64,000 nucleotides of DNA from Oceanispirochaeta sp. (GTDB lineage: Bacteria > Spirochaetota > Spirochaetia > DSM-2461). Position 1 is the stretch's first letter; the number at the start of each line of letters is the position of its first letter. The DNA is taken from contig CAXXXD010000002.1 of assembly GCA_963663385.2 (NCBI GenBank), positions 1,664,001 to 1,728,000 of the forward strand. Reading direction: 5' to 3'. Shown here piece after piece: positions 9,845 through 11,128 of the stretch. The notes below the pieces were generated by a model. The model searched no databases. It saw nothing but the letters and a program-made list of their open reading frames with translations, and was not told the origin of the DNA. The position numbers were made by a program, and so were the translations under genes.

Positions 9845-11128
9845 TTATTCATCAGCAAATAAATCTTTGAGTCGTCTTGATCTTTTAGGATGTCTTAATC
9901 TTCTAAAAGCCTTAGATTCTAAGAATTCAAAATCATCAATATCAAGATCAAGTTTTTCACAAATTTCCTCATCAGAAATGAAATTAATATTTGTAATATA
10001 TTTTGAAAGTATTATTTCTTTTTCAACATCTGGCAATGTTTCTATGCTCTCTTGCATCAAGTCATAGATTTCCTTTTCACTGTATTTGGTTTTTAGTCTA
10101 GGATTTCGTTCCCCAAATATACGACCAATCAATGTTACCACTAGTTCAATATTTCTTTCATTATTTAATGATTTTAAGAATTCAATTTCCTTAATAGTTG
10201 ATTGTACTTGAAGTTCATCGTTTTTATCTATTTTCATTATTTTGTAATTCTGTGCATACTTTATGAATTCATCTATGCTATACATATAAAAAAGTAGATT
10301 GGTTTCATCAGAAAATTCATTTATCAACTCTGGCCTAGGACCTAATATTTTTTTTCCATCTTTCAACCACCAATCTTCTTTAGTTTCATTTGTGATAAAT
10401 ATGATTGATCTTTTTTCTTTTTTTGCTTTTTCTAGAATTTGATTCCAAATAATTAAATCACCAAATTTCTTTAGATTCTCTTTTTCTTTACTATCCATAT
10501 AACCAGGAGGAATACTATTCTGATATCTAAAATCCCCAATTTTCTCTATTTTCTGAAGTACATCATAAGAATATTTTTCACCAATGCAGTTATCAAAAAT
10601 ATCTGAGACTTTTTCCAAAATAGAATCTGAAACAAGTAATTTAGTGTAATAATTTCTGTATCTCTTTAACTGAATAAAATCATTATATTTGTAAATTGAT
10701 TCAATTGATTCATTTACAGCCTCTAATTCATATTCAAGTTCATTCAGAATATTACTTGTATTAGTAATAAATGGATGGCGCTTTTCCATTTTTGGATTTT
10801 GTCTAAACTTATTCAATTCCTCAATAAATTTCTTTTTAAATGATTCTTTCAAGACACTTTCACTCTCTTCAAATCGCTCGTAAATTCTAATCTGTTCTTT
10901 GATTACTGCAATACGATTATCATGATATTCATGAGCGACTTGATAAGGTAACCATAGTCTATTACTTTTTATTGAGTTGAGTATTTGAATAACATTCTGA
11001 CTTGATTCTTTAGAATATCTATATAAATCTAATAGAACATTTGTATCAAAAACAAAAATACAGTTATTCCATAATTCACTGAATATTTTCTGGTCAAAAT
11101 CATAATATCCTTTTAGAACTTTTCTCAT
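9845..11128 (-). CDS. Cassette gene: PIN-like nuclease domain fused to a C-terminal sigma70 region-4-like domain
   Basis: [24 protein letters not shown] and [10 protein letters not shown] (PIN_8-like); the C-terminus [21 protein letters not shown] resembles the RpoD C-terminus. Confidence 0.8.
   Translation of the reverse strand: [427 protein letters not shown]

Follow-up and report, generated by a model that had tools for sequence, protein, structure and literature searches.

Why should a nuclease carry at its C-terminus region 4 of a primary sigma factor, and one stripped of the residues that read promoter DNA? The question is raised by a stretch of 64,000 nucleotides of Oceanispirochaeta sp. 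(assembly GCA_963663385.2, contig CAXXXD010000002.1, positions 1,664,001 to 1,728,000; this whole stretch is called the window, and its coordinates are used below). One minus-strand gene encodes the protein P0001, in which a PIN_8 nuclease is joined to a homologue of sigma region 4, and this architecture is practically certain. Literature searches (supplements excluded) gave no account of PIN_8 function or of a PIN/sigma-4 fusion; a PIN-like, probably defensive cassette whose adaptor is a captured sigma region 4 blind to DNA thus appears to be undescribed in the literature searched.

Nuclease domain of P0001

The gene and its parts are located as follows.

9845..11128, minus strand: P0001, PIN_8 nuclease, helical linker and sigma region-4-like tail, 427 aa; stop codon at 9845-9847
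10220..11077, minus strand: PIN-like nuclease domain, aa 18-303 by structure, with a three-helix insert at about aa 62-177
10325-11059, minus strand: Pfam PIN_8 match, aa 24-268, E 3.1e-63
10118..10225, minus strand: long helix of the linker, aa 302-337, with the RIFG motif common to the older fusions at its end
9854..10093, minus strand: Sigma70 region-4-like domain, aa 346-425, by sequence homology and predicted fold
11133..11137, minus strand: GAGGA ribosome-binding site, 4 nt from the ATG, read from the sequence

The Pfam family PIN_8 (PF18476) matched P0001 over model positions 1-227 of 227 with 214.2 bits (gathering cut-off 26.1), and was a far better fit than PIN_12, which reached 31.2 bits, narrowly under its cut-off of 32. 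Six acidic residues (D28, E67, D168, D212, D224 and D252) do not vary among 72 aligned PIN_8 sequences and are also kept in eight sigma4-bearing relatives, which bears out the preliminary description, made from the sequence alone, of a PIN_8-like domain with its acidic motifs intact. Pfam gave no Sigma70_r2 or Sigma70_r3 match in P0001 and its N-terminal 300 aa are PIN_8, so the protein is not a sigma factor.

The AlphaFold2 model, built on the 72-member alignment (mean predicted local distance difference test score, pLDDT, 89.6; predicted TM-score, pTM, 0.80), consists of three parts: the PIN domain (aa 18-303), a long helix (302-337) and a helical domain (346-425). When the model was searched against 48,161 chains, the neighbours of the PIN part (model residues about 18-303) included 1y82_A (Z 9.1), 3zvk_A (Z 8.3) and 7f3e_E (Z 7.9). 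VapC toxins, such as 3zvk_A, 6sd6_C and 6nkl_B, were among these neighbours, as were the PIN domain of Rrp44 and minimal (HARP) RNase P. Foldseek found no match of the whole model at E<=0.001. Judging from family and fold, P0001 would be a metal-dependent PIN_8 ribonuclease. No second open reading frame (ORF) lies between the cassette boundaries at 9835 and 11190, so there is no adjacent antitoxin gene as in VapBC. PADLOC 2.0 has no model that matches P0001; its only match, MTase_II with E 0.047, was taken as chance.

Homology and origin of the tail

Through BLASTP comparison of the last 130 aa of P0001 with the last 140 of the host RpoD, we found 31 identities in 82 positions (38%, E 3e-14), the homology beginning in the linker just ahead of region 4.1. 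The sole other match of the tail in its own genome was the rpoD gene on contig 3 (E 1.2e-8). Among the 49 PDB sequences that phmmer returned at E<=10, 41 were sigma-factor chains, with S. aureus SigA 8x6f_E (E 1.4e-5) and 4g6d_A (E 2.2e-5) at the head, and NCBIfam RpoD_Cterm (TIGR02393) matched aa 349-423 with E 6.2e-5. The predicted fold agreed: the tail model superposed on region 4 of primary sigma factors (7vpd_F, Z 9.1, root mean square deviation (rmsd) 2.4 A over 79 residues; 4xln_F, Z 8.8), and Foldseek aligned it to the region-4 chain 8cwr_B with probability 1.00 and rmsd 1.8 A over 70 columns. Solved chimeras of flap tip and region 4 occurred among its PDB matches by both phmmer and Foldseek. 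The tail of P0001 is therefore region 4 of primary-sigma type, with a likeness far beyond chance, and the resemblance to sigma70 region 4 first noticed by eye is confirmed in BLASTP (E 3e-14) and in fold (Z 9.1).

Some details were corrected. The C-terminal text quoted in the preliminary description was right, and its residue numbers were off by 5, as the quoted segment starts with ETLP at aa 363 and not at 358. It had also proposed to check the tail by profile and structure against Sigma70_r4; the fold (Z 9.1) and the RpoD_Cterm model (E 6.2e-5) answered positively, and Pfam Sigma70_r4 (PF04545) gave no match at E<=10 with either the full protein or the tail alone. The same family, with a cut-off of 24.1, scored 67.8 bits on the relative P0124, 44.5 on P0004, 38.9 on P0243 and 24.8 on P0151, and 23.6, narrowly below the cut-off, on P0003. 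The only Pfam match of the isolated tail, DnaB_2 with E 0.0033 and below its cut-off, was taken as chance. In the ESM Atlas, residues 300-427 matched best to clusters of about 120-aa "sigma factor-like HTH" (helix-turn-helix) proteins at 0.85-0.86, which is below 0.9 and a lead only. A word-indexed search with residues 330-427 returned P0001 itself and one sigma factor, a result that reflects the limit of the search and not rarity. The RIFG motif was considered as a remnant of the LGDFIED of sigma region 3.2; this is unsupported, because the homology with RpoD starts only at the NP that follows RIFG.

To see which sigma factors are nearest, a profile of six fusion tails was searched against longer proteins and the best 120 matches were examined. 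The first seven were PIN_8 fusions, and the other 113 listed all had sigma-factor domains. The 17 of these 113 with an organism name were all spirochaete RpoD (Sphaerochaeta, Treponema, Spirochaetaceae and Alkalispirochaeta), and all have the same 12-residue ending as the host sigma. With spirochaete RpoD as the nearest sigmas, the captured domain derives from the lineage where the fusions live; to judge from these sequence neighbours, the tail is a captured region 4 of a primary sigma from the host's own lineage.

Loss of the recognition helix and conservation of the ending

Two segments of the tail have had opposite fates.

9917..9949, minus strand: equivalent of the -35 recognition helix, aa 394-404, by alignment with host RpoD
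9863..9904, minus strand: 14 residues identical to host RpoD, aa 409-422; 14 of 42 nt differ, all synonymously

The numbering of E. coli sigma70 was set by an ungapped PDB alignment (query 58-96 against sigma70 572-610). At the positions that we take to be the -35-reading residues of E. coli sigma70, R584, E585, R588 and Q589, P0001 has I397, D398, E401 and F402, and D399 takes the place of R586. The helix now contains D394, D396, D398, D399, E401 and E404, and all three arginines of the host helix are gone. As this single helix has given up three arginines and acquired three acids, it is very unlikely, judged from these replacements, that the P0001 tail reads the promoter major groove. The equivalents of R584 and R586 are each kept in only one of ten aligned non-sigma carriers, P0124 in both cases.

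The ending behaves in the reverse way. Fourteen residues are identical to host RpoD and the codons beneath them differ at 14 of 42 nt, all synonymously, which argues that there was no recent transfer of DNA from rpoD; this part of the tail is held by selection as peptide while its codons drifted. L365, A407, R409, H413, P414 and R416 are invariant in all eight aligned fusions. An acidic recognition helix beside a well-kept C-terminal tail had been described at the outset, and both points are upheld.

A dense basic stretch runs through this ending (K406, R409, R410, R412, H413, K415, R416, R418, R419 and K421), and it might be asked whether the tail binds DNA or RNA, for capture of substrate or for autoregulation of the cassette in the manner of the HTH of toxin-antitoxin regulators. 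The HTH fold and the density of basic residues from K406 to K421 would suit such a role, some homologues retain the R588 equivalent or even the whole canonical helix, and other PIN_8 tails have domains of DNA-binding type (Mrr_cat, and winged-helix-like ones by eye). The helix of P0001 itself is acidic and without the host's three arginines, however, and nine of the ten aligned non-sigma carriers lack the R584 and R586 equivalents; moreover, the cassette has neither a partner gene nor an obvious operator, and the conserved residues are those in common with sigma factors, with none new. We therefore consider a nucleic-acid-binding tail improbable.

Relatives carrying the fusion

The PIN_8 profile search was exhaustive over 1.84 billion representatives (clusters at 50% identity) and returned 4,565 proteins, each a cluster representative, at E<=1e-30. 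A local hidden Markov model of the tail, applied to the best 150 of the 4,565, revealed five carriers (P0001, P0122, P0123, P0124 and P0151), and word-indexed searches added P0002, P0003, P0004 and P0243, so that nine distinct PIN_8-sigma4 fusions were seen. The tail was absent from 49 PIN_8 loci of GTDB species genomes, from the best 15 of 73 plasmid records with PIN_8, from the single phage record with PIN_8 and from 80 of 99 IMG/VR PIN_8 loci, those examined. The fusion gene was also absent from ten other genomes of the host's genus; nine of the ten matched via RpoD only, and one among these (G001) also has a different PIN_8 gene.

On a PIN tree of 279 rows, the fusions stand at four places by parsimony, and the well-supported branches force at least two changes. 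The four places are (P0001, P0002) with (P0003, P0123); (P0004, P0122); P0151 with P0135 and P0216; and P0124 with P0149. A quick IQ-TREE tree of 60 rows gave the four identical places. P0124 and P0149 are 84% identical over aa 1-328 and unrelated beyond, the tail of P0149 consisting of repeats and that of P0124 being a fully canonical region 4 (TRERIRQIE). A survey of PIN_8 homologues for swapped C-terminal domains had been suggested beforehand, and here such a swap is seen.

The recognition helix is partly kept in P0151, P0004, P0122 and P0243 (IRQL, IRQLE or IRELE, including the R588 equivalent), and nothing of the canonical helix is kept in P0003, P0123, P0002 and P0001. Since P0124 is canonical and 84% identical to a differently tailed protein, capture recurs and the helix decays later. 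We read the fusions as a time series in which region 4 would first be captured and its DNA-reading residues then decay. The preliminary description had named homologues with a basic recognition helix as a point that would count against its proposal. Such homologues exist in part, P0124 with the whole helix and P0004, P0122, P0243 and P0151 with the R588 equivalent, and they indicate that DNA blindness is a derived state of the older fusions and not a prerequisite of fusion.

The rarity of the fusion (five of the best 150 among 4,565 clusters at E<=1e-30), the tail swap between the close relatives P0124 and P0149, and the hypervariability of PIN_8 C-termini, mostly without recognisable domain, could all be explained if the sigma-4 domain had no specific partner and were a decaying, largely structural appendage (for oligomerisation, stability or autoinhibition) of an autonomous nuclease. 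A decaying domain should not have retained 14 residues identical to RpoD through saturated synonymous change, though, nor H413, P414 and R416 in all aligned fusions, and it should not have been captured repeatedly. To this explanation we give little credence.

Two further proteins were noted beside the fusions. P0247, a non-sigma protein of 247 aa whose cluster members P0357-P0360 include forms of 117-125 aa, matches Sigma70_r4 with E 1.3e-10 and has a degenerate helix (VTPKQIMEIE) and a spirochaete-type 15-residue ending; its N-terminal 165 aa belong to no Pfam family, and no relatives were found in IMG/VR viral contigs. From P0247, sigma-4 mimics may extend beyond PIN_8. In P0331, of 207 aa on a 750-bp contig, an unrelated N-terminus of 110 aa precedes a region 3.2-4 near-identical to the host RpoD; the protein may be a chimeric assembly or another capture of region 4.

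Variable C-termini of the PIN_8 family

The C-termini of PIN_8 proteins are hypervariable, and coiled-coil, repeat or acidic tails without a recognisable domain predominate. Globular domains were also found in the PIN_8 proteins L033:7881-9338 (+) and P0104, namely the restriction-endonuclease domain Mrr_cat (E 2.1e-26) and KTSC (E 5.6e-24). By eye, zinc-ribbon-like CxxC pairs were seen in the tails of loci L027, L037, L057 and L060, and some other tails were judged winged-helix-like. The C-terminus of the PIN_8 ORF of locus L025 (2610-4067, plus strand) matched UvrD/PcrA, with 7egt_B first (E 1.2e-4), followed by 4c2t_A, 7egs_B, 6yi2_A and 5dma_A; P0057, its sister on the PIN tree (support 86), has the same UvrD/PcrA Tudor tail by motif. 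According to three papers (PMC5397179, PMC3797733 and PMC8318588), the C-terminal domain of UvrD/PcrA is an RNA-polymerase interaction domain. Two unrelated RNA-polymerase binders, sigma-4 and Tudor, on one nuclease family point to targeting, and at least some PIN_8 C-termini appear to be addresses on RNA polymerase.

Proposed docking on the beta-flap of RNA polymerase

Two partners of sigma region 4 are textbook knowledge: the DNA of the -35 element and, on core RNA polymerase, the tip helix of the beta-flap at the edge of the RNA exit channel, a pairing also reflected in the solved chimeras among the PDB matches. The surfaces of region 4 that contact the flap are likewise those bound by regulators of sigma from phage and host (anti-sigma proteins). 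As the recognition helix of P0001 is lost and the core and tail are constant, the domain most likely acts by protein-protein contact. A DNA partner would be excluded by the helix, and a protein partner is consistent with the conserved residues.

We might propose the following mechanism. PIN_8 proteins would carry interchangeable C-terminal adaptors, that of P0001 being the captured primary sigma region 4. After the capture, the -35-reading residues would have decayed, and the hydrophobic core and the 12-residue tail would have stayed constant. The sigma-4 mimic would then dock at the beta-flap tip beside the RNA exit channel, and the docked nuclease would meet nascent transcripts. That P0001 is a single-gene defence RNase held on the beta-flap at the RNA exit by a sigma-4 mimic is our leading explanation, offered tentatively as something short of probable.

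For complex prediction, aa 786-930 of the host RpoB (23-row alignment) were combined with the tail (8-row alignment). The interface score ipSAE was 0.37 (0.38, 0.37 and 0.35 in the single runs) against 0.01 for the best control, a result classed as "weak support"; at least 78% of contacts were common to the runs, with a partner pLDDT of at least 74. The mark was passed by 116 of 157 solved complexes and by 2 of 215 mismatched pairs, and passing scores not above 0.60 comprised 18 of the 157 solved complexes and both passing mismatches. Because the pair resembles solved complexes, its pass indicates likeness more than binding. A model of the tail with the beta-flap had been recommended in the preliminary description, which also offered a tether of the RNase to RNA polymerase as one of two functions; the evidence leans this way, through the Tudor tail on another branch and the weak pass of the flap complex.

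Several points weigh against docking on the flap. Besides the weak score, the structure of sigma-4 with the beta-flap is solved and in the textbooks, and mere likeness may therefore explain the pass. The Tudor match of L025 is below the Pfam cut-off (19.7 against 23.9 bits) and the Tudor motif was found in only 2 of 291 PIN_8-family proteins, and most PIN_8 tails (coiled-coil, repeat, acidic, Mrr_cat and KTSC) are not known RNA-polymerase binders. A nuclease constitutively tethered at the RNA exit should be toxic, and the cassette has no inhibitor gene. The conserved basic patch could equally bind nucleic acid or another partner of sigma-4. As for the defence role, P0001 has no model in PADLOC 2.0, and Cosus, the nearest known cassette, is PIN_12, a model whose cut-off P0001 just fails to reach. 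Finally, conservation cannot separate a tether from a decoy, because anti-sigmas use the flap-binding surfaces.

In the decoy explanation, the sigma-4 mimic would be an integrated bait for phage anti-sigmas and appropriators, whose binding would release or assemble the PIN RNase and abort the infection. Several features fit. The tail is a letter-perfect copy of the sigma tail of the host lineage despite synonymous divergence, and the named nearest sigmas in its profile listing are all spirochaete RpoD, the type of the host RpoD; the DNA-reading residues are lost, as expected of a bait not meant to occupy promoters; and the cassette sits among defence systems. The best PDB sequence matches also include region-4 chains crystallised with regulators, which we take to be phage G1 ORF67, AsiA and Rsd. 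On the other hand, no phage binder of sigma-4 is known for the host lineage, and no search aimed at one was made; a mechanism linking bait binding to activation of the nuclease is lacking; the UvrD/PcrA Tudor tail on a sister branch reads more easily as a targeting module; P0124 retains a functional-looking region 4; and the literature searches gave nothing on sigma-4 decoys in defence. We regard an integrated decoy as rather unlikely, and the fuller proposal, that an immune nuclease shows a copy of the sigma surface which phages must seize and fires when a phage protein binds, as unlikely by a little more. Docking on the beta-flap and baiting have in common that they link the nuclease to the transcription machinery, which is probably either its target or the means by which it is baited.

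Integron, neighbouring cassettes and introns

The gene of P0001 is a single-gene cassette of a chromosomal integron, so that what had been called a single-gene cassette from the sequence alone is literally one. The integrase and the cassettes are listed below.

23729..24955, plus strand: integron integrase (TIGR02249, 380.6 bits, cut-off 265), divergent from the array
16625..21070, minus strand: Lamassu cassette lmuC-lmuB-lmuA, nearest to the integrase of the listed cassettes
20378-21070, minus strand: lmuC, E 1.3e-68
18414-20381, minus strand: lmuB, E 8.7e-135
16625-18295, minus strand: lmuA, E 9.2e-42
13266..14476, minus strand: cassette of Abi_alpha (PADLOC PDC-S47) and DUF2441, between the Lamassu and PIN cassettes
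3..3032, minus strand: cassette of DUF3800 (PDC-M04A, E 6e-9, weak) and a type III-like DNA methyltransferase (E 3e-112)

All cassette ORFs left of the integrase gene are on the minus strand, which places the integrase beside a co-oriented array. From the integrase the order is Lamassu, Abi_alpha (PDC-S47) with DUF2441, PIN_8-sigma4, and DUF3800 with the type III-like methyltransferase, whose ORF extends past the window edge; this is an anti-phage integron array, largely of defence systems. The G+C content is 0.28-0.44 in the array and about 0.50-0.57 right of the integrase (25000-64000), which looks like core chromosome.

Group II introns and mobile elements occupy the junctions.

3245..9834, plus strand: group II intron copy 1, its 3' end 10 nt past the PIN stop codon
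11277..13269, plus strand: group II intron copy 2, with reverse transcriptase ORF at 11883-13163, directly upstream of the PIN cassette
14610-16602 and 21236-23228, plus strand: group II intron copies 3 and 4
5041-9629, minus strand: insertion sequence IS66 inside intron copy 1, with tnpC 5088-6650, tnpB 8810-9271 and tnpA 9271-9567
6827-8110 and 8107-8871, plus strand: istA and istB of an IS21 element inside the IS66
11184..11276, minus strand: attC-like hairpin at the upstream cassette boundary (GAACAAG...CTTGTTAAAT), dG -21.6 kcal/mol, z -4.5
3140..3244, minus strand: remnant of the PIN cassette's own attC-like region, beyond intron copy 1, z -2.2, weak

The four intron copies are 99.7-100% identical, antisense to the cassettes, and each lies exactly at a cassette junction, an arrangement that resembles the group IIC-attC introns. 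In the genome, the intron was found as 15 blastn pieces on three contigs, with 5' exons all ending in TTG. Further copies lie left of the window (contig 2, 1,653,251-1,661,231), so the array probably continues at least 11 kb further. Copy 1 is interrupted at 5040/9630 by the IS66 element, with an apparent 8-bp duplication (intron positions 1789-1796 on both sides). The DUF2441 ORF (13266-13754, minus strand) reaches the 3' end of copy 2 at 13269 and has its stop codon within the final bases of the intron; insertion of copy 2 may have replaced the native end of this gene.

All four boundaries are split by introns, and the junctions were judged by folding: the junction DNA forms hairpins with z -2.0 to -4.5, and the upstream one has a GTTAAAT core at 11184-11190. 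By sequence and folding these hairpins would fit attC sites. An intact attC at 18296-18413 was rejected, being unlike attC and inside the Lamassu operon. Antisense introns that are inserted in attC, block the integron promoter and supply an outward promoter for the next cassette have been described (PMC3001079). In our scan of 9500-11900, nine promoter-like sites (9.1 expected) and one terminator-like site (1.4 expected) gave nothing above chance; a minus-strand promoter-like site at 11688-11661 in intron copy 2 is a candidate outward promoter, likewise not above chance.

Probable defence role of PIN_8

PIN_8 genes were found in 73 plasmid records and 99 IMG/VR stretches, and are frequent on plasmids and prophage-like contigs. 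The neighbourhood of 43 other PIN_8 loci was surveyed with the two nearest ORFs on each side (150 ORFs in all, leaving out six loci with a broken PIN ORF and three smallest ORFs). Thirteen of the 43 adjoin a gene of restriction-modification, AAA_15/AAA_21 (Abi-type), Mrr-helicase, Pycsar, HEPN or Schlafen type, nine adjoin plasmid or element genes, and no partner gene recurs across the 43. The PIN survey of Matelska et al. (2017, PMC5499597) places PIN_8 (PF18476) in the VapC-like group, with the entry "Function unknown". Cosus (Brc24), the closest relative with a tested function, is a PIN_12 cassette of one gene from mobile integrons. It makes cells completely resistant to T7, and T12A, D14A or D96A weaken the protection more than 10^5-fold (bioRxiv 10.1101/2024.07.02.601719). 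Position as an integron cassette among defence systems strengthens the anti-phage reading, and because of Cosus and the defence neighbours in the array a defence role is the most likely one; by this analogy, P0001 probably acts in defence or abortive infection.

Significance

PIN_8 comprises more than 4,500 clusters at 50% identity with no known function, on plasmids, prophages, defence islands and, here, an integron, and the sigma-4 fusions give a concrete handle on its variable C-termini. The series from canonical (P0124) to degenerate region 4 presents a housekeeping domain captured and then stripped of its original function. If the tether is true, infected cells would shut down transcription in a novel manner, through a nuclease that a sigma mimic stations at the RNA exit channel. 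If instead the decoy is true, bacterial immunity would have a novel principle of sensing, the baiting of phage sigma-binding proteins, as a bacterial counterpart of the integrated decoys in plant immune receptors, and degenerate sigma-4 proteins, standalone or otherwise fused (P0247), would belong to the same arms race. The locus itself is a non-Vibrio chromosomal integron stocked with defence systems and with group II introns at the cassette junctions.

Comparison with known systems

P0001 shares with primary (group 1) sigma factors the fold of region 4 (Z 9.1), 38% identity to the host RpoD, the motif EAKA(L/F) and the 14-residue stretch; it differs in having no regions 1-3, in its replaced -35-contacting positions and in the attached nuclease. 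With the PIN_8 family (PMC5499597) it shares the full-length model match and four to five conserved acidic residues, whereas the sigma region 4 tail is confined to the nine proteins found. VapC toxins have the same PIN fold and acidic active site and are structural neighbours (3zvk_A, 6sd6_C and 6nkl_B), but the P0001 cassette has no antitoxin gene, and P0001 exceeds VapC in length by about 300 aa and possesses a helical insert as well as a C-terminal adaptor.

MzaA of the MZA anti-phage system is likewise a sigma-related protein within a defence system, and its PADLOC model matched the tails of P0124 (E 1.3e-24) and P0004 (E 1.4e-9). P0001 reached only E 0.16 on the NCBIfam MzaA model, and MzaA is named as a complete sigma factor, not a nuclease fusion. 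Cosus, compared here through its published description, is alike in being a single ORF with a PIN nuclease of the VapC-like group in an integron cassette, and PIN_8 and PIN_12 cross-match. It differs in that the best family of P0001 is PIN_8, with PIN_12 short of its cut-off (31.2 against 32 bits), that the P0001 integron is chromosomal and that of Cosus mobile, and that no sigma-like tail is reported for Cosus in that description. The Tudor domain of PcrA/UvrD is of unrelated fold, contacts another site of RNA polymerase and is not present in P0001; like the sigma-4 tail as we tentatively understand it, it is a small C-terminal module bringing an enzyme to RNA polymerase, and it is found on a sister PIN_8 branch.

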